The notes under the pieces are model-generated. The model was given only the letters and a program-made list of their open reading frames with translations. It was not told the DNA's origin and made no database searches. A stretch of 64,000 nucleotides of DNA from positions 23,109-87,108 of the IMG/VR virus record IMGVR_UViG_2944808559_000001. One strand, written 5' to 3'. Position 1 is the stretch's first letter, and every line of letters starts with the position of its first letter. Shown in pieces: positions 5,810-23,440 of this stretch. This stretch comes from a virus (taxonomy: Duplodnaviria > Heunggongvirae > Uroviricota > Caudoviricetes). A program made the position numbers and the translations under genes.

Positions 5810-6949
5810 TCAGCGGGGCAGCCGCAGCCCCTTGTCCTTGGCCAGCGCGCGGGCGCGCGCCCGGTACTCGCGTACCTTCGCGTTCGCCTTCTGCTTGGCG
5901 TCCTTGTCGATCGCCGCCGCCGCGCGGCGTTCCCACTGCCGGGCCTGGCGTTGCAAGCGACGCACCTCCTGGGTGTCGCCGTACTCCGCAGCCACCGCGG
6001 GCTTGGGCGCCGGCCGGGTGACGCCGGGCAGGTACGCCGACAGCGAGTGCCTGCAGTTCGGGTGCAGCAGCCCCTCAAGACGGGCCTGCGCCACGGTGGC
6101 CGCGACCTGGACGGTGATCGGCTCGTTGGTGAGGACGTTCGTTGCCAGCCGCTCGCCCGCCGTCCCCGACTGGGTGAGGACCTTGCCTTCCCACGGGTCG
6201 CACAGGCTGCACGAGTACGGCGTGGTGGAGACGATCACCAGGTCCATTCCCGCGTCACGCAGGATCGCGAGGTGGCCGTCCACGGCCGCGCGGGCGGTCG
6301 CCGTCCGCATCGCCATGGCCACGTACGACTCCAAGTTCCACGTGCGGCCCGACGCGTCGGTGAAGCCGGTGATACCGCGTGCGAGGAGCCGGTCGAGCGC
6401 CTCCTGAGCCGCCAGACGGCGGGTCTGGCCTCCGATCAGCACGCGGCCCGCGGTTGCGGCGATCACCTGCCGGTAGATGTCCTCCACCACGCGCAGCGCG
6501 GACAGCTCCACGACGTCGAGCCTCTCGACCACCTGGCGGGCCAGCTCGGTCACGCCCTGCCCGGGGTTGATCAGCTGGGAGGAGCCGAGCTGGCGGGCGT
6601 CCCGCAGCGTCCGCTCCAGCCGCCGGCGGATCTTGGCGTCGTTCACGTCGCGGATGGCGGTGATGATGGCCTGGTCCATCCCTGCCGTCCACGCGCCGAC
6701 GACCGACTTGCGGGCCTTGGCCGCAGCCTCCAGCCGCTTGATGATGCGTTCGGCCTCGCGGCGGAGCTGCCCGATCTCGGCCAGCCGTTTGGCCTGCCAC
6801 GCGGTCGGGTCGTCGTCGGCCTGGTCGACGTCGTCAGCGACCCGGGCCGCGATCCGCTGCAGGAGCACCTGCTCCGCGTCGGCGTACAGGCGGGCGACCT
6901 CGCGGGCCTGCTCCAACGCGGAGGCGATCTCCTGCTCGGGCGTCGCCAT
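5810..6949 (-). CDS. phage head morphogenesis protein (SPP1 gp7 / Mu F family)
   Basis: 379 aa. Carries the MuF motifs GITGFTDASGRTWNLESYVAMAMRTA and HPNCRHS. Its start overlaps the portal stop. Confidence 0.8.
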   Translation of the reverse strand: MATPEQEIASALEQAREVARLYADAEQVLLQRIAARVADDVDQADDDPTAWQAKRLAEIGQLRREAERIIKRLEAAAKARKSVVGAWTAGMDQAIITAIRDVNDAKIRRRLERTLRDARQLGSSQLINPGQGVTELARQVVERLDVVELSALRVVEDIYRQVIAATAGRVLIGGQTRRLAAQEALDRLLARGITGFTDASGRTWNLESYVAMAMRTATARAAVDGHLAILRDAGMDLVIVSTTPYSCSLCDPWEGKVLTQSGTAGERLATNVLTNEPITVQVAATVAQARLEGLLHPNCRHSLSAYLPGVTRPAPKPAVAAEYGDTQEVRRLQRQARQWERRAAAAIDKDAKQKANAKVREYRARARALAKDKGLRLPR

Positions 6950-8529
6950 CAGCTCTCGCCGGTGGGTTCGCCAGCGTCATCGTGTGCCTCGGGGACGATG
7001 ATGTCGCGCAGGTCATCCGGGTCGGGCACGTTCAGGCCGAGCTCGTCGCGTAGCCTGTCCACCTCGGCCTTGATCTGCGTCTCGTCCCACTCGGGGTGCA
7101 GCATGCGGACGCGGGTGTCCAGCGATGCGGACTGTGCCCGGTTGAGCATGTCCAGCGTCCGCGACAGCGCTTCCGGGTCGGGCATGACCCCGTCGGGCCA
7201 CTCCACGCTCGCCCGCTCCGGGACGACCTTCGTGCCGTAGATGTGCGCGTCGACCGCGAGCAGGCATTCCGCGAGCCACGCCAGCGCGGGCGTCCAGTAG
7301 TTGAGCTTCTTGCCGCGCGTGGTGAAGCTGCGGCGTTCGCGGGAGTGGATCTCCGTCGCGGTCGCCGCCGCGCCCTCGCCGGCCTCGCCGAAGCTCTGCA
7401 CGGAGTATCCGGCACCCCGCAGGATCTGCGCGAGCAGGCTCTTGGCGGTCTGCTGGTGCTCGGCGACGCGGATGTCGAACTGGGAGACGGTGATCATGGG
7501 AGCGCCGCCGGGCGGCGGCAGCATCCCCAGCGGCGCGTACACCTCGCGGTCCGGGTCCCACGTCGAGCCCCTGCCTCTGCCGGTGTTCGTCAAGTACACC
7601 TCGGGCACGATGATGCGACCCTTGCCGAGCCGCAGGTCCCGCATCCAGCTCGTGAACGTCTCGTCGAGCGAGTCCATGAGCGGCTCGACGCCCGCATAGT
7701 CCGAGCGGCCCAGACTGGTGCCGCGCAGCAGCCGGTGGGGGCGCATGTTCGGGACGTACTCGACCAGCAGCCCGCGCGGAAACCCGGAGTCGAAGCCGCC
7801 GTCGGCGTCGACCATCTCCGCGAAGATCTCCGTCTCCGGGTGGTCGGTCAACGGCACCTGCATGCCCAGCTTCTCGTCATCCCCCCGGTACAAGCCGTGG
7901 TAGACGCGGCCGAACTCATGACGCTCCAGGTGCCGCCACACGTCCTTGTGGTCTTCCTCGAGGATCCGCCAGAACGTGACCGCCCGCAGGCGGCCCTTGA
8001 CGAACTCCGGGACCGCGCAGTCCGCCGGGAGGACGTCCACCACCGGGTGGTCGTGCATCTCGGTGTCCCACCCGACCCGCAGGTACACGCCGCCGTAGGC
8101 GGCGCACAGCTCGGCGCCCTCCAGCAGGATGGCGTTCACGCCGCCCTCTCCGAGGATGGTCTCCAGCCTGGCGTTGCCCGTCTTCCCGCTCACTCGCAGC
8201 GTCGGCGCTTCGGAGAACAGCAGGTCGCCGGACGTGCCGGCGATGTCCGCCGCGATGGGAACGTGCAGCTTCGTCGACCGGGACTGCCCGGCCGGGAGCG
8301 GCGTGCCCCAGAACCATCGCGAGATCCGGTTCAGGAACCCGCCCCCATACGTCAGCGGCCGGTCCCACCCCTTCAGGTCGAGCCCGACCCCCGGGAGCAC
8401 CCCTGCGCCGTACACCTTCGCAAGCTCGTCCGGGTCTCCGCCGTACCAGGCGCCGTGCTGGGCGTACATGCGCAGCTCCGGCTTCATGCGCGGGGGCGGC
8501 CACTCCTGGTCAGTGGTGGGGAGCGGCAC
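6949..8529 (-). CDS. portal protein
   Basis: 526 aa, GTG start. Sits upstream of MuF. Its size and position are typical of SPP1-like portals. Confidence 0.8.
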   Translation of the reverse strand: MPLPTTDQEWPPPRMKPELRMYAQHGAWYGGDPDELAKVYGAGVLPGVGLDLKGWDRPLTYGGGFLNRISRWFWGTPLPAGQSRSTKLHVPIAADIAGTSGDLLFSEAPTLRVSGKTGNARLETILGEGGVNAILLEGAELCAAYGGVYLRVGWDTEMHDHPVVDVLPADCAVPEFVKGRLRAVTFWRILEEDHKDVWRHLERHEFGRVYHGLYRGDDEKLGMQVPLTDHPETEIFAEMVDADGGFDSGFPRGLLVEYVPNMRPHRLLRGTSLGRSDYAGVEPLMDSLDETFTSWMRDLRLGKGRIIVPEVYLTNTGRGRGSTWDPDREVYAPLGMLPPPGGAPMITVSQFDIRVAEHQQTAKSLLAQILRGAGYSVQSFGEAGEGAAATATEIHSRERRSFTTRGKKLNYWTPALAWLAECLLAVDAHIYGTKVVPERASVEWPDGVMPDPEALSRTLDMLNRAQSASLDTRVRMLHPEWDETQIKAEVDRLRDELGLNVPDPDDLRDIIVPEAHDDAGEPTGES

Positions 8530-8692
8530 GTCACACCCTCTCTCTTTCGGCTAACAGATTCGCTAGCGACAGCCACGAGTCAGCGAGCTTCTCGATGCGT
8601 TCCATCCGGGCCAGATCCGTCTCCAGCTCGGCGTTGGACAGCAGCCGGGCCGCGTTCTGCACGGCCTCGTCGAAGGTCACGTGGAACCTCGC

Positions 8693-9637
8693 TCAGATGA
8701 TGGGGACCAGTCCGGATGGCAGCACCGGACGCTCGTCAGGCCTGACCACGCGCACCCACCCTTGGTAGGTGCCGTCAGGCAGGGTCACCGCGCCGCCGGG
8801 GCCGACCTGGATGCGCGCCTCCGCGCCACCGTTGCCGACCGCGCCCCACGACGCTGGCGTCCACTGGTCCTCGGTCGGCTCGACGCCGGGGTTCGTGAAC
8901 GCCACCGCGACTTCCTCCACGCCGAGCGCGTTGTCGACGAAGAAGCTCAGGTACTCCAGCGACAGGCTGCTCATCGGGTCCACGCCCGTCCCCCTTCCGA
9001 GGTAGCGCGCCGCCCAGGACCGGCGCGGCAAACCGACCCGTAGCGGCGGTGTACGGCGCAGCAGCGGCCGCGCGAGTCCGGCCCCGGTGACCTGGCCGAT
9101 CGTGTGCGTCGTGATGGCGAGCAAGGCGAACGCTTCTCCGGCCGCTGCGGCGTGGCCTACCGGCCCTCCGCGCGCGAGCGTCAATGGCCGCGCCTGCCCG
9201 ATCCCCACCGACTGGTGGAGTGCGAGCGCCTTGCCCGGGCGCAGTGGTTGTGGCTGGCCGACGCCAGTCACGGTGCTCGCGACCGGGTCGCCTCGCATCA
9301 GGAAGACGACACCGGCGGAGGTAATCTGCCCGGTCGCCCGGCTCTTCCACTGGCCAACCTGGACGACCGTTCCGGCGCCGCTCACCTGGCCGAGATGCGA
9401 GCTGCGGACCGGCGTGGCAGGCGCGGCTGCTCCGGCGCCGCTCACCTGTCCGAGCACGCGAGTCTTGGTCGCCGTCGCCGGCAGCGGACCGCTCGTGCCG
9501 GACGCCTGCCCGGCGCGTTGCGAGCGGGCGGCGAGCACCGTCAGCGCGGAGCCGTGCCCGGTGACCTGGCCCGCGATGGTGGCGCGGGGTCGGGCGATGA
9601 TAGGTCGGTTCGGGTATGAGCGGCCTGCGCGGGCCAT
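8693..9637 (-). CDS. repeat-containing protein with about eight 20-aa repeats (xLGQVSGAGx) and a distinct ~95-aa C-terminal domain
   Basis: Start chosen at the internal ATG (MARAGRSYPNRP) with RBS GGGAGG 5 nt upstream, 14 nt after the upstream stop. The 60-bp DNA repeats show synonymous substitutions, for example ggccag/gtgagc versus ggacag/gtcacc. This supports minus-strand coding over the antisense 428-aa plus ORF. Confidence 0.5.
   Translation of the reverse strand: MARAGRSYPNRPIIARPRATIAGQVTGHGSALTVLAARSQRAGQASGTSGPLPATATKTRVLGQVSGAGAAAPATPVRSSHLGQVSGAGTVVQVGQWKSRATGQITSAGVVFLMRGDPVASTVTGVGQPQPLRPGKALALHQSVGIGQARPLTLARGGPVGHAAAAGEAFALLAITTHTIGQVTGAGLARPLLRRTPPLRVGLPRRSWAARYLGRGTGVDPMSSLSLEYLSFFVDNALGVEEVAVAFTNPGVEPTEDQWTPASWGAVGNGGAEARIQVGPGGAVTLPDGTYQGWVRVVRPDERPVLPSGLVPII
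9250..9620. repeat. degenerate tandem 60-bp repeats, about 7-8 copies, core ccggcgccgctcacctggccgag
   Basis: Seen directly, for example at 9371-9393 and 9431-9453. They lie within the coding region of the repeat protein. Confidence 0.6.
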
Positions 9638-9650
9638 GGACCGCCTCCCT

Positions 9651-10382
9651 CTACCAGCTAGCGGCGCGGTGTACGGCAGTGGGCGGGGACAGCAACACCG
9701 AACGGGTAGCGGGCGATGCGGGCGGCGCGGGCTGGACCCGCAGCGTGAAACCATGCGCCGCGTACACAGAGGACGAAACGGTGTGCTGGCGTTGCGCCGT
9801 GCTCGCCGATGTCATGACTTGCCGGGTGAGTTGCGCCGTGACCCAGTTCCCATCGAGGTCGGCTACCTCAACGAGCGGCGATGGAGCCGCCCACGTCCGC
9901 GCGGCGCTGACGTTGTAGTTGTCCCCGGCGGCCCACCGCAGCTCCAGGTCGCCGATGGCGGGCGAGGCAGGCCCTGCGGGGGTGTTCACGTTGACGATCC
10001 CCGACCCGGTGTTCGTCTGGCCGTTGGTCCGGGTGAACGTCGGGGCAGCAGGGAGCGCGTCGGCGATGGCGGCGATGGCCATCACGTTGATGCCACCGAA
10101 ACCTTCGGGCCCCAAGTCCAGCTCCCAGGTGCTTTCGGAAGCACCGGCCACCTTCCACCAGATGCCCGTGGCGATGAACCCGTACGTGGAGCTGTTGTCC
10201 GTGGCGTACGAGGTGAGCAGCTGCCACGCGGGGCTGCCGCCGGTCAGGCTGACAAAGTCGAACTCAGGCGCTTCGAACGACAGGAACGCCACCAGCAGGT
10301 CGCCCGGCTGCATTCCCGGCGGCGGCGTGGGGTTATTCGAGCTCTGTACGGCCTGGTAGATGTTCGGGCGTAAGGTGGGCAC
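9651..10382 (-). CDS. hypothetical protein, tandem paralog 2 (243 aa)
   Basis: About 50% identical to the neighbouring 241-aa ORF. They share MPT.R...PPP.MQPGDLL.AF...TGGSPAWQLLTS...AIGDLELRW.AGDNYN...HTVS..VYAAHGFTLR..PAP...AVHRA.SW. Confidence 0.55.
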   Translation of the reverse strand: MPTLRPNIYQAVQSSNNPTPPPGMQPGDLLVAFLSFEAPEFDFVSLTGGSPAWQLLTSYATDNSSTYGFIATGIWWKVAGASESTWELDLGPEGFGGINVMAIAAIADALPAAPTFTRTNGQTNTGSGIVNVNTPAGPASPAIGDLELRWAAGDNYNVSAARTWAAPSPLVEVADLDGNWVTAQLTRQVMTSASTAQRQHTVSSSVYAAHGFTLRVQPAPPASPATRSVLLSPPTAVHRAASW

Positions 10383-10398
10383 TCAGCACCGCCTCCCG

Positions 10399-11124
10399 TC
10401 ACCAGCTAGTGGCACGGTGCACGGCGGCAGCACCCGACAGCTGGACCGGTCGGGCAAGCACCGGCACAGGGGCAGGCCGGATCCGTAGCGTGAAGCCGTG
10501 CGCGGCGTACACCCCTGCCGAGACCGTGTGGGTGCGGGACGACGAGACGGGGTCCGTGATGGCCTGCTGGGTCAGCTGCGCCGTCAAGTAACCGTCGCTG
10601 AGGTCAGCGACCTCGCTCGCCCCTGACGGGCCGGACCATGACCGGTTCGCCTCCTCGTTGTAGTTGTCGCCAGCCACCCACCGCAGCTCCAGGTCCCCGA
10701 TGGCGGGAGGCGGCCCGGCCGGGCTGCTGATCGATCTCAACGAGGTGGACGTCGATGTCTGGTCGGCTGACACCCTGTACTCGGGTGCCTCCAGCAGCGC
10801 GTCTGTGATGGCGATCACTGACATGACCGAGAAGAAGTCGTTGTCCTCCGAGGCCACCGTCCACTCGTCGTCGTCGCTAGCCTGCTTCCACCAGATTCCG
10901 GAGGCGACGAGGCCGTCGAAGCCGAACTCCTCACCGGCCGTGGTAAATCGTGAGGTCAGCAGCTGCCACGCGGGGCTGCCACCCGTCAACTGGGCGTCGA
11001 ACCCATCGATCGGGGCCTCGTAGGCGAAGAAGGCCAGCAGCAGATCGCCAGGCTGCATCGTCGGCGGCGGAGAGATCGTAGGGGAGTCAACAGCGGTAGA
11101 GATTTGTGCTCGGACGGTGGGCAC
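10399..11124 (-). CDS. hypothetical protein, tandem paralog 1 (241 aa)
   Basis: See paralog 2. Abuts the next gene at 11125. Confidence 0.55.
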   Translation of the reverse strand: MPTVRAQISTAVDSPTISPPPTMQPGDLLLAFFAYEAPIDGFDAQLTGGSPAWQLLTSRFTTAGEEFGFDGLVASGIWWKQASDDDEWTVASEDNDFFSVMSVIAITDALLEAPEYRVSADQTSTSTSLRSISSPAGPPPAIGDLELRWVAGDNYNEEANRSWSGPSGASEVADLSDGYLTAQLTQQAITDPVSSSRTHTVSAGVYAAHGFTLRIRPAPVPVLARPVQLSGAAAVHRATSW

Positions 11125-11589
11125 TCAGCACCGCTCCACCCAGAGGGTCGCCGCGACGGACACCGCGTCGGCGAATCGGGCCCGCAGGACGAATCCCGTG
11201 CCGGGGCCGCAGTCGGGGCTGTCGCCCAGCGGCAGGTCATACAGGACCGTGCCGGAGTTCGGGGACAGCGACCACGCGTCGAGGACCACCAGCTCGGTCG
11301 GCTCGCTCGTCCAGGTGTGCGCGGCCGTGAAAGCGGCCGGGATGGAGCGGCCGTACAACTGCTGCGGGGTCACCGACGTCGAGGCGGTCCCGGGCAGATT
11401 CGAGGCGAAAGTCGCCGCGCACAGCTGGATGTCGCCCGGCACCGCCACCGCGGTGCCTAGCGTGCTGACCCTGATCTTCTTGACTTCCAGCCCGAACGAG
11501 CTGGGCGCGAGCACGCCGAGCACGCTGCGCGCCGTGTTCGCGGAAAGCGACACAGCCGGGGAGACGACGGAGTATCCAGTCTTAGCCAT
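11125..11589 (-). CDS. hypothetical protein (154 aa, beta-rich, no charged clusters)
   Basis: ORF track. 4-nt gap to the upstream gene. High GC3. Confidence 0.5.
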   Translation of the reverse strand: MAKTGYSVVSPAVSLSANTARSVLGVLAPSSFGLEVKKIRVSTLGTAVAVPGDIQLCAATFASNLPGTASTSVTPQQLYGRSIPAAFTAAHTWTSEPTELVVLDAWSLSPNSGTVLYDLPLGDSPDCGPGTGFVLRARFADAVSVAATLWVERC

Positions 11590-11592
11590 AAG

Positions 11593-12063
11593 TCACACCG
11601 CCCGGTAGAAACCGTCAGGCGAGATCTGAACGACCACGTTGCTGCCGTCCGGCGTGATCGAGAAATCATGCGCGGTCAGCGGCACGATGGCGCTGTCCGG
11701 CGACGCGGTCGCCGGCCGGTAGCAGACCAGGACCTTGGCCCAGCCGCTGCCCGGCTGCACGGAGAGGAACGTCTGGTCCGGGATGTCCAAATCCACTCTG
11801 TCGTTGGCGAGGTCGGGCAGCGCGTCGCCCAGGTCGGCGGCGCTGAGCACCTTACGGGCGTAGCCCGTGTTGGTGGCCTCGTTGCTGGAGCCGCTCAGGA
11901 TCTCAGCCAACGTCGCCCGGTCCTTCAGGCCGGCATCGGACTCGATACCGGCCTCCGCCAGGACGACCAGCACCAGGGCGCTGGTCGCGGGGTCGCCGGT
12001 CCGGACGCGCCGGTACAGCTCGACTGTCCTGCCTTTGGCGGCGTTGAACTCGAAGTCGGCCAC
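11593..12063 (-). CDS. hypothetical protein (156 aa)
   Basis: GTG start (VADFEFNAAKGRTVELYRRV) with RBS GGAGGG 4 nt upstream. It is the first gene after a 300-bp non-coding gap downstream of terL. Confidence 0.5.
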   Translation of the reverse strand: MADFEFNAAKGRTVELYRRVRTGDPATSALVLVVLAEAGIESDAGLKDRATLAEILSGSSNEATNTGYARKVLSAADLGDALPDLANDRVDLDIPDQTFLSVQPGSGWAKVLVCYRPATASPDSAIVPLTAHDFSITPDGSNVVVQISPDGFYRAV

Positions 12064-12204
12064 GTGGCCCTCCTCGTTGACGTGGTGACGTGGGTGGGGG
12101 TGCCGGGGAGCGCGGCCTCGGCGACTGGACGACGATCCGCACCGGGCAGATCCAGCCCGCCCGGCCAAGCAAGCGGCAGCGTGGGCGCACCGGGAACGCG
12201 ATAG

Positions 12205-12258
12205 GGGTGTGGTCCCGGCCGGCGGCTGCCCCTCAACAACCTGGGCCGGGACCACACC
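12205..12258. repeat. 15-bp perfect inverted repeat GGTGTGGTCCCGGCC ... GGCCGGGACCACACC with a 23-nt loop, inside the 300-bp terL-cassette intergenic region
   Basis: Read directly from the sequence. Confidence 0.5.
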
Positions 12259-12372
12259 GCGGCTCAACGCTGGCGGACGGAAGGTGCCGTCGCGGAGCCG
12301 TCTGACCCCTGGGCTGTCCTTGCGCGAAGGCGTGCGACCGGAATACGCGAGGACAAGCCCGGGGAGCCGAAG

Positions 12373-14219: not shown

Positions 14220-14726
14220 ATGCGACCAATAAAAATGATCACCATTCAGCAACCCTGGGCCGCGCTCATCGTCGCCGGGATCAAAGACATCGAGAACCGC
14301 ACCTGGACGACGGCCTACCAGGGACCACTCCTCATCCAGGCCGGGATCAAGATCGACCGCCGCGGGTTGCGACGGCTCGACGAGCTCGGCCTGGAGCTCG
14401 ACGCGCCGCTGCACCGCGGCGTGATCCTCGGCTCCGTCCACCTCGGCGAGATCACCCGCTCCAGCGCATCGCCTTGGGCACGGCCCTACGCGCAGCACTG
14501 GAAGCTGTCCGACCCGCAGCCCGTTGTCCGCCTGCTGGAGGCTCGGGGCCAACAGGGCCGCCTCTTCGATCCCCCTCCTGACTGGAGGCGCGCGTTCACC
14601 GAGCACGACGCCGGCACAACACGCCTGTCACGGGTGCGGGACGTGCCGGCCGACGAGGTCGCCCCCAGGTTCAGGGAGAAGGTGACCCCTGAGGCGGCGT
14701 TGCTGGCCGCCCTGAACGGGGGGTGA
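14220..14726 (+). CDS. ASCH domain protein (PUA-like)
   Basis: MITIQQPWAALIVAGIKDIENRTW is the ASCH signature. AT-rich 5' end. Divergent from terS. An alternative start is at 14235. Confidence 0.65.
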   Translation: MRPIKMITIQQPWAALIVAGIKDIENRTWTTAYQGPLLIQAGIKIDRRGLRRLDELGLELDAPLHRGVILGSVHLGEITRSSASPWARPYAQHWKLSDPQPVVRLLEARGQQGRLFDPPPDWRRAFTEHDAGTTRLSRVRDVPADEVAPRFREKVTPEAALLAALNGG

Positions 14727-15801
14727 CGGGTGCCACGTACTCGAACGAGACCACCCCGAGCCGCCTCGGGTCGAGCGACTGCTCGTGCATCCAGGCGTGC
14801 TTGCTGCTGGTGCCGAGCGTGCGATCCTGGCGCTGCATCCGCCAGCGCGGGCTGCGCGCCCGGTAGGCGTTCAGCGCCGGGTGAGCGGACACGGCACGCA
14901 GCCGGTAGCCACGCTCATACAGGTACTGCCCCATCCACTCGGTCATCCGGCCGCCGAGCGACAACCCCTGATAGTCCGGCAGCACGACCGTGCGATGCGC
15001 CATTTTCAGGTTCCTCGTGCGAGGGTGCTGGAAATGGCGGTAGCTCGTGAAAGCCGCCAATTCGCCATTCACGTACCCGGCGAAACACTGCGCGCCGCGA
15101 TGCAATTCGACGGTCAAATAGTGATGGCGGCTAAACACCTTCCAGAGGGAGCGGTCAGCCTCGTGGATGTCGAGCCGGAGCGGCGGCCGGGGTTGAACCG
15201 ACCTCCAGCTGAACGAGGCCGCGGCGACGTCGTACACCCAGTCCGGCTGCAGCCAGTCGAGCACGTCATAGTGGCAGGTCACGGCCACGAGCTGCCGGTC
15301 GCGGCGACGTACCGCCTTCTGCACCGCGTGCGAGGCGACCTTCGCCACCTGCCTGTCCACGACCGACGTGAACTCATCGATGACGACCAGGCCGTCACGG
15401 TCAGCCAGCGCCCGGGCCAGCCCGGCGCGGAACGCCTCCCCGTTCGACAGCGTGCTGAAAGGCCGCATCCACGCCGGCGGCGAGCTCAGGCCGACCGCGC
15501 CGAGCAGCGCGACGACGTCCTTGACGCTCATGCCCTTCGGGAAGTCGTCGACCAGCGCCCGGTCTGTCCACTCCTGAGCGCCGACGAGGGCCTCCGGCCA
15601 CAGCTCGCGCGCGATCGTGGACTTGCCCGCTCCGGACGGGCCGACGAGCAGGCCGACGTTCCACGGCCGCTCCTCGACGGGCATCTCCACGGACCAGGAG
15701 GTGGTCAGCTTCTCCTCGACGGGCACGTCGAACAGGCCCTGCAGTTGCAGGACTCGCGCGCTCCGCTTGACGGGAGACGACAAGGTGATCTCAGCGCGCA
15801 C
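14671..15801 (-). CDS. ABC-type ATPase domain fused to a C-terminal GNAT acetyltransferase-like domain
   Basis: Walker A GPSGAGKST, signature-like LSNGEAFRAGLARAL, Walker B LVVIDEFTSVVD and an H-loop TCHYD. The C-terminal YQGLSLGGRMTEWM matches GNAT motif A. Confidence 0.65.
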   Translation of the reverse strand: MRAEITLSSPVKRSARVLQLQGLFDVPVEEKLTTSWSVEMPVEERPWNVGLLVGPSGAGKSTIARELWPEALVGAQEWTDRALVDDFPKGMSVKDVVALLGAVGLSSPPAWMRPFSTLSNGEAFRAGLARALADRDGLVVIDEFTSVVDRQVAKVASHAVQKAVRRRDRQLVAVTCHYDVLDWLQPDWVYDVAAASFSWRSVQPRPPLRLDIHEADRSLWKVFSRHHYLTVELHRGAQCFAGYVNGELAAFTSYRHFQHPRTRNLKMAHRTVVLPDYQGLSLGGRMTEWMGQYLYERGYRLRAVSAHPALNAYRARSPRWRMQRQDRTLGTSSKHAWMHEQSLDPRRLGVVSFEYVAPVTPRSGRPATPPQGSPSP

Positions 15802-23038: not shown

Positions 23039-23440
23039 TTAGTTCTGGGCGTGCTTGCCGCGCGCGGCGACGGCGCGCATCATCTCGCGTGCCTGGTCTG
23101 CAGAGATCAGCCGCGCGCCCATGTTGCCCAGGCTGTCGAGTGCCTGCACGAGGGTCTTGATCACGAACATGTTGACGCGCGGCGCACCGGCGGCGGTGAT
23201 CACCTCACCGAACACCGCCCAGGCCGACACGCCGATGGCGCGGTCAACGGGGTTCATGACCGCGAACAGGCGCGCGTGGGCGCGCCCGACGTTCGTCTCT
23301 GCGCCCTCGGGCGTGGTGAGTGCGCCCAGGTGGTTGACGCCCATGTTCACGGGCGGGATGTCCAGGCCGGTGAGGACCTTGTTAAGGCTGTCGAGTGCGG
23401 CGCGTACGAGCGGCGCAACGTCGGGGCGTTCCTGCTCCAT
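23039..23440 (-). CDS. hypothetical protein (133 aa)
   Basis: Preceded by the conserved 5'UTR tacccgaacggagaaacgatc and a GC hairpin. Confidence 0.5.
   Translation of the reverse strand: MEQERPDVAPLVRAALDSLNKVLTGLDIPPVNMGVNHLGALTTPEGAETNVGRAHARLFAVMNPVDRAIGVSAWAVFGEVITAAGAPRVNMFVIKTLVQALDSLGNMGARLISADQAREMMRAVAARGKHAQN

Follow-up and report, generated by a model that had tools for sequence, protein, structure and literature searches.

Results

A six-gene cassette lies between terL and portal

We analyzed a 64,000-nucleotide (nt) stretch of DNA, called the window below, from a Caudoviricetes virus (IMG/VR record IMGVR_UViG_2944808559_000001, positions 23,109 to 87,108). Our subject is a cassette of tightly packed minus-strand genes, named A to E here (8,693 to 12,372), which together with a sixth small gene separates the terminase gene terL from the portal gene. 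Taking the evidence below together, we lean toward reading the cassette as a self-contained accessory fiber of the virion, built as beads on a rope with plug-in heads for host binding. The window has about 70% G+C. Protein C is identical to a Nonomuraea maritima protein encoded on a 318-kb contig, and we therefore take the window to be a prophage. From terL to portal, the features are as follows.

12373 to ~13650, minus strand: terL (Pfam Terminase_6N, phrog_2)
12064 to 12372: non-coding gap between terL and A, 309 nt
11593 to 12063, minus strand: gene A, 156 aa, proposed bead, a whisker-like fiber subunit that would bind the rope repeats
11125 to 11589, minus strand: gene B, 154 aa, proposed socket or adaptor for C-terminal HRAxxW tails
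10399 to 11124, minus strand: gene C, 241 aa, predicted beta-sandwich (jelly-roll) head (residues 1-215) and a disordered C-terminal tail
9651 to 10382, minus strand: gene D, 243 aa, tandem paralogue of C
8693 to 9637, minus strand: gene E, 314 aa, proposed rope and anchor (collar-like) protein
8531 to 8680, minus strand: sixth gene, between E and portal, an open reading frame of 49 aa starting MTFDEAVQNAARLL (MTFDEAVQNAARLLSNAELETDLARMERIEKLADSWLSLANLLAERERV)
6949 to 8529, minus strand: portal (SPP1_portal; phrog_533 at 1e-104)

Past the portal gene come a MuF-like minor capsid gene, a scaffold gene, and the major capsid gene, in that order. The G+C content at third codon positions is 0.83-0.91 for all five genes A to E. 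A GGAG-type ribosome-binding site precedes each of A, C, D, and E; none is obvious for B, whose start lies 3 nt past the stop of A. An earlier note on this DNA had stated that a cassette separates terL from portal, and the identity of the flanking genes confirms this. All five minus-strand genes that it described are real coding genes, but it overlooked the 49-aa gene, which is also present in the related loci L004, L005, and L009 (L numbers denote loci of our collection). In L010 and L013, another small gene occupies this site.

Searching Pfam, NCBIfam, PADLOC, and the PDB sequences with proteins A to E, we found no match. Megablast of the whole terL-portal region against annotated phages returned nothing; tblastn against such phages gave matches for A and portal only, and none for B, C, or E even at E ≤ 1. 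A scan of viral contigs with protein C revealed no relatives. The earlier statement that none of the proteins belongs to a known family thus holds for these four databases, but A does match a family of unknown function, phrog_26662.

The cassette is kept in related prophages

The order terL-module-portal is kept in at least 17 related phage or prophage loci, with terL proteins 68-97% identical to that of the window. These relatives are Nonomuraea, Streptosporangium, and IMG/VR proviruses. They share the order terL, A, B, one or more head genes, E (or a rope gene with a small anchor gene), a small gene, and portal. The cassette is a lineage feature of many Streptosporangiaceae prophages and no one-off insertion, and the idea of an unusual accessory insertion has to be given up. 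What we found is largely the contrary case that the earlier note had named, in which many related phages have structural proteins at this position.

The head genes differ between relatives. L003 has one, the window two (C and D), and L005 three. The two heads of L004 are an unrelated 224-aa protein and the product of a C-type gene, and those of L010 have 371 and 239 aa. L003, L004, and L005 each carry a single C-type gene.

Among annotated phages, the Streptomyces phages Keanu and Hiyaa are nearest; their terL and portal proteins are about 50% and 45% identical to those of the window, respectively. In both phages, terL adjoins portal. Their A homologue (gp12) and a 1106-aa protein (gp13), which in Keanu carries the same 20-aa repeats as E, instead sit between the genes for the capsid and the head-to-tail adaptor. 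In Keanu, L007, and L008, the A homologue comes just after the gene for the major capsid protein; in the cyanophage Pam4, it (gp34) follows the baseplate gene, and in the Burkholderiaceae locus L006 it follows genes for the tail spike and for lysis. In every context examined, the module lies within structural gene blocks.

A is a widespread protein with the predicted fold class of phage fiber components

Protein A matched the profile of the function-less family phrog_26662 with E 1.2e-30 (residues 1-149 of A on profile positions 1-142 of 151). The family members are encoded by the Streptomyces phages Keanu, Hiyaa, Spocter (gp12), and Galactica (gp10) and by Pseudanabaena phage Pam4 (gp34). They are 37-43% identical to A and all annotated as hypothetical. 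The A family has at least 678 homologues, and in IMG/VR we counted 486 loci encoding A. The protein is unusually conserved, with 58% identity in a Burkholderiaceae metagenome-assembled genome.

The structure model of A had a predicted local distance difference test score of 93. Comparing it with known structures, we found the best matches to the baseplate wedge protein gp7 of Klebsiella phage KP1 (score 9.6) and to the tail wing arm protein gp31 of mycobacteriophage Bxb1 (7.7, 23% identity). Lower scores were obtained for a 136-aa chain of the GP4 entry "Fiber I and fiber-tail-adaptor" (6.9), a 108-aa protein of the Sf14 neck (5.4), and a 139-aa protein of the phage 7-7-1 tail-fiber entry (5.0). 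By this model, A resembles, in its predicted fold class, the small proteins from which phage fibers are built. Between the A family profile and Bxb1 gp31, the sequence match was sub-threshold (E 1.2), which is insufficient for homology; a HD..PxGSDI..GFxR motif is common to both.

A is 58-62% identical between phages with capsid proteins of different Pfam families (a faint P22_CoatProtein match versus Phage_capsid). For this reason, the partner of A most likely travels within the module. A module-borne partner fits the rope and counts against decoration of the capsid.

E combines 20-aa repeats with a nearly invariant C-terminal domain

Protein E consists of three parts, all on the minus strand.

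9056 to 9595, minus strand: E residues 15-194, nine repeats in an exact 20-aa register, consensus K-x-R-x-h-G-Q-V-x-[G/E]-x-[G/D]-x-A-x-P-h
8996 to 9055, minus strand: E residues 195-214, junction RRTPPLRVGLPRRSWAARYLG with one R-R-x-W motif, nearly invariant in the E alignment
8696 to 8995, minus strand: E residues 215-314, C-terminal domain of about 100 aa with nearly invariant columns, proposed virion anchor

The earlier count of about eight repeats was too low, as nine stand in strict register and a degenerate tenth (residues 195-214) bears the RRSW motif. The earlier remark on synonymous divergence between the repeats agrees with Tandem Repeats Finder, which detected no DNA-level repeat in E. 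The E family comprises 14 proteins, mostly of exactly 314 aa. In their alignment the repeat region varies, and residues 194-314 are nearly invariant (RRTPPLRVGLPxRSWSARY..., then the domain of about 100 aa). A profile of E matched no PDB chain.

In 11 loci (L011, L012, L019, L021, L025, L032, L035, L036, L039, L053, and L084), the C-terminal domain of E is encoded by a gene of its own, about 100 aa long and preceded by a separate ribosome-binding site, directly after the rope gene. The rope proteins of these split lineages end in two to four tandem PxRRTWSA-type motifs of about 11 aa each, and E keeps a single RRSW at the fusion point. Examples of the split arrangement are found at L011 12049-13041, L012 11423-13105, L019 9811-11433, and L053 10478-12832. 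We also considered stop-codon read-through as a means of joining rope and anchor. It was ruled out by the separate ribosome-binding sites and starts and by the frames, which agree in 4 of the 11 loci, the rate expected by chance.

The repeats occur in 46 loci, in 3 to 24 copies. They are found in a 350-aa protein of L006, encoded three genes downstream of the A homologue (E 4.7e-17), and in Keanu gp13 (E 3e-5). These two proteins and a Streptosporangium E protein display a clearer consensus, h-G-Q-V-x-E-T-D-x-A-x-P-h.

A is genomically linked to the repeat protein

We scanned 91 loci with a hidden Markov model of the repeat unit and with the E profile, and restricted the count to the 63 A loci having at least 3 kb downstream of A. 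A 20-aa-repeat protein was encoded on the strand of A in 56 of these 63 loci, usually within a few kilobases. The linkage is seen in unrelated contexts as well, namely in the Burkholderiaceae locus L006 and in the gp12-gp13 pair of Streptomyces phage Keanu.

B is genomically linked to a C-terminal tail shared by unrelated heads

The earlier estimate that C and D are about 50% identical was accurate; we measured 51.8% over 247 columns. Both are predicted to be jelly-roll heads. In the structure model of C, the C-terminal tail is disordered.

10402 to 10479, minus strand: tail of C, residues 216-241, ending ...AAAVHRATSW; A234, R237, and W241 are invariant in the family
9654 to 9731, minus strand: tail of D, ending ...PTAVHRAASW

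A terminus of the form ...(A/V)(H/Q)R(A/S)xxW is found in C and D and also in the relatives' extra heads, which are otherwise unrelated. The 91 loci contain 3233 stop-to-stop open reading frames of 150 aa or more, and we scanned the end of each for the pattern [HMRQ]R[ASG][AGSTH]x[WF]. Only 25 frames carried it. All 25 lie in the 21 B-containing loci, on the strand of B and mostly adjoining it, and B is always accompanied by proteins with such an ending. B itself has no Pfam, PHROG, or PDB match, and its family comprises at least 253 representative clusters at 50% identity (E ≤ 1e-3). The scan provides strong genomic evidence that B and the tail act together, and we infer from it that the tail may dock into B.

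Several other relationships were tried and rejected. Comparing profiles by hhalign, we obtained probabilities below 1% both for A and B as distant paralogues and for C and E as relatives. The longer B-family proteins are not A-B fusions, as their N-terminal extensions are unrelated to A, and a 2916-aa B-family match proved to be a spurious hit to a YadA-type adhesin. A lectin-like (LamG/ConA) label for the relatives' extra heads (pre224, p225, the 350-aa protein of L006, and Keanu gp13) was withdrawn for want of Pfam support. Only Pam4 gp35 gave sub-threshold matches to two glycan-active families.

Two further observations concern the tail. In six IMG/VR loci (L079, L080, L085, and L087-L089; positions ~8800-11750), a compact four-gene module lies in unrelated viral contigs. 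Its genes encode, in order, a 238-aa protein ending ...MMRAAYF, B, A, and a rope of 420 aa and 17 repeats; F replaces W as the last residue of the tail. The terL-A gap of the N. wenchangensis relative L003 holds a stop-to-stop frame of 79 codons (8796-9032) that ends in ...SPAAVHRATTW and looks like what remains of a lost head gene with such a tail. The gap of the window was also considered as a decayed head gene. We rejected this, as it holds no coding remnant and its conserved part is an RNA element.

The terL-A gap contains a conserved structured RNA

12206 to 12298, minus strand (gene-sense): structured RNA element of about 95 nt with two helices, conserved and supported by covariation

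A perfect inverted repeat had been noticed in the gap before; its 15-nt arms are correct, and its start had been placed one position off (the arms lie at 12206-12220 and 12244-12258). This repeat, extended, forms helix 2, whose apex GYUGUUGAGGGGCAGC is almost invariant. Helix 1 is invariant (GCUCCGC...GCG..GAGC). By blastn, we found the element in 12 related loci. RNAalifold predicted 31 pairs, of which 12 are changed on both sides, and several G-U pairs are valid on the sense strand only. In the pairing controls, 94.5% of cells were paired, compared with 34-47% when the partners were slid, and 0 of 500 shuffles reached the observed values. The element has no Rfam family, with only chance-level matches to miRNA and snoRNA families (15-21 bits against gathering scores of 55-70).

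The window has a single copy of the element. Scanning for the exact pattern, we found it in 25 genome contigs, all from Streptosporangiaceae; it is always downstream of terL and on the same strand, and in 20 of the 25 it stands ahead of an A gene. The earlier note had suggested looking for a promoter in the gap. More than a possible promoter region, the gap holds this conserved RNA, and our scan of the gap for promoters and terminators with a sigma-70-like consensus, which may not suit actinobacteria, found none. The element could plausibly act as a terminator, an attenuator, or a processing site that controls the module. Apart from the fiber, this small but clean case is a candidate for a new regulatory RNA of phages.

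Additional copies were seen elsewhere (L091-L115, e.g. L094, L102, L107, L109, and L115). Nonomuraea basaltis strain 160415 has five separate terL-linked copies on different contigs and thus appears to carry more than one prophage of the lineage, several in all. In N. maritima, another copy lies on contig FNFB01000028.1.

Discussion

The accessory fiber that we moderately favor would be assembled as follows. E would serve as the rope, with nine to ten 20-residue segments fused to the conserved domain of about 100 aa, which would anchor it to the virion. Copies of A, probably as dimers, would be threaded on this rope as beads, each repeat of E completing a beta-sandwich of A. The heads C and D would be attached via B, into which the disordered ...HRAxxW tail would dock, and they most likely bind host surface structures. 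Duplication and swapping of heads would then alter adsorption specificity. That A physically binds the repeats and B the tail is inferred, as are the stoichiometry, the location on the virion, and host binding by the heads.

An appendage of this kind has recently been described. In the myophage Bas63, 12 immunoglobulin-like collar proteins sit on the connector, each with a long N-terminal rope; whisker dimers wrap the rope like beads on a string, and the rope, lying in the whisker grooves, completes their incomplete sandwiches (PMC12609058). In the podophage GP4, a separate protein serves as the rope; it interlocks with the collar and bears five Fiber-1 dimers (PMC12609058). In Sf14, the whisker genes gp30 and gp31 adjoin the portal gene gp29 (PMC11821841). 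The bead protein of these phages has an N-terminal helix and an incomplete beta-sandwich.

The parallels with our cassette are of several sorts. The Bas63 collar protein has the same polarity as E, with N-terminal rope or repeats followed by a small C-terminal domain. Rope and anchor are fused in Bas63 and separate in GP4, as they are fused in E and separate in the split lineages. The five Fiber-1 dimers of GP4 amount to ten monomers, and E has nine to ten repeats. The whisker genes of Sf14 adjoin portal, and here E and the 49-aa gene stand immediately upstream of it. This gene position and the analogy with Bas63 and Sf14 suggest that the fiber may sit at the neck.

There are also clear differences. 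Bas63 and Sf14 are Felixounavirus myophages, whereas the window is a siphophage-type actinobacterial prophage, and sequence similarity between the cassette and the components of Bas63, Sf14, and GP4 is undetectable. The rope of the cassette has a clear 20-aa sequence repeat, a possible difference from the ropes of those phages. B, C, D, and the HRAxxW tail have no described counterpart. C and D are likened to jelly-roll (TNF/C1q-like) receptor-binding heads, such as the receptor-binding protein head of lactococcal phage Tuc2009. On our reading, the kind of appendage is known, and its form here is new and partly undescribed, with B and the tail as components that lack a described counterpart.

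Several points weigh against the accessory fiber. The two proposed binding pairs, A with the repeats and B with the tail, are read from gene linkage, and the loci of the tail scan had all been gathered through A, C, or E. We obtained no significant match from PDB sequence searches, whether with single sequences or with profiles of A, B, C, and E. The structural likeness of A to whisker-type entries is modest, and the GP4 and Sf14 chains that it matched are known by entry only. The words "collar" for the C-terminal domain of E and "socket" for B are analogies. In L006 and Keanu, the repeats lie C-terminal to a globular domain, a polarity opposite to that of E. Finally, the extra heads of the relatives have no Pfam match.

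A wider reading, which we put forward as a tentative possibility, is that the cassette represents a display system of the plug-and-socket type that is general among tailed phages, horizontally mobile, and made of two undescribed protein families. Here, A would clamp the 20-residue rope repeats, and B would capture a short, universal C-terminal tag, ...HRAxxW/F. Any tagged head could then be mounted on the virion, with repertoires swapped or duplicated, as C and D would be, and the structured RNA downstream of terL may control expression.

The same building blocks could instead be placed at the tail tip or baseplate, like the tail wings of Bxb1 or the baseplate garland of phage 7-7-1. We consider this unlikely, though it is the location that the best structural matches of the A model, Bxb1 gp31 and KP1 gp7, would suggest. 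It also agrees with the position of the A homologue after the baseplate gene in Pam4 and after the tail-spike and lysis genes in L006. The Bxb1 tail wing consists of a gp30 base, a gp31 arm, and a gp33 brush, and the model of A has some likeness to the arm. The brush gp33 is a glycine-rich polyproline-II structure (PMC13243192). Among A to E, we found neither a gp30-like D-Ala-D-Ala carboxypeptidase base (Pfam, NCBIfam) nor a GGX-rich, gp33-like brush protein in the translations. Moreover, the anchor gene always lies just upstream of portal in this lineage, far from the tail genes; gene position, however, is weak evidence in both directions.

It is rather improbable that the repeats of E form a fiber shaft of their own, such as a trimeric beta-spiral or beta-helix, with A as an assembly chaperone or base adaptor. 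The strict 20-aa periodicity, the alternating hydrophobic residues, and the conserved glycine or turn positions are typical of fibrous beta-repeats, and the copy number of 3 to 24 varies as in fiber shafts. However, A is very highly conserved and its predicted fold is that of virion components rather than of known fiber chaperones, its linkage to the repeats persists for very short repeat arrays, and the precedent of Bas63 and GP4 would account for both parts together.

We hold it to be very improbable that the proteins decorate the capsid or form head fibers. The position of the A homologue just downstream of the major capsid gene in Keanu, L007, and L008 would suit this, and the upward-facing whiskers of Bas63 contact the capsid (PMC12609058). 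Co-variation of A with the capsid family would be expected, however, and the high identity of A across differing capsid families speaks against it.

Least credible of all is a non-virion cassette serving anti-defense, superinfection exclusion, or some other moron function: all six proteins lack an annotated function and the number of heads differs between relatives, as in arms-race loci, but the genes are co-oriented and tightly packed within the late packaging and head operon, PADLOC matched none of the five proteins A to E, the predicted fold of A matches virion parts, and the module lies inside structural modules wherever we examined it. Non-structural roles are thus unlikely. Three functions had been proposed in the earlier note. 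Anti-defense finds no support in PADLOC, the likeness of A to virion fiber components also disfavors a capsid cargo, and host range or receptor binding is the best fit of the three.

If the accessory fiber is correct, two large "hypothetical" families, A and B, would gain a structural role, and the 20-residue repeat proteins of hundreds of phage genomes would be explained as well. The beads-on-rope design has so far been described in a small number of Gram-negative phages; its range would grow to include actinobacterial siphophages and reach well past them. A docking tail shared by exchangeable heads would offer a simple route to a changed host range and possibly a handle for phage engineering.

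Observations on neighboring genes

In the close relative L009 (3009-7238, Logan contig SRR20959685_102433; E 84% identical), the MuF-like minor capsid gene encodes 1409 aa, and its product shows a weak PI3_PI4_kinase Pfam match. These features suggest that the protein has a large extension at its C-terminus, as a cargo or toxin-like part. Upstream of the terminase genes of the window lies a gene of 376 aa (14671-15801, minus strand), which is also kept in L003 and L004. The proteins of these two relatives have only faint ABC_tran and Acetyltransf_1 Pfam matches, making the gene an odd ATPase-like neighbor of the packaging module.

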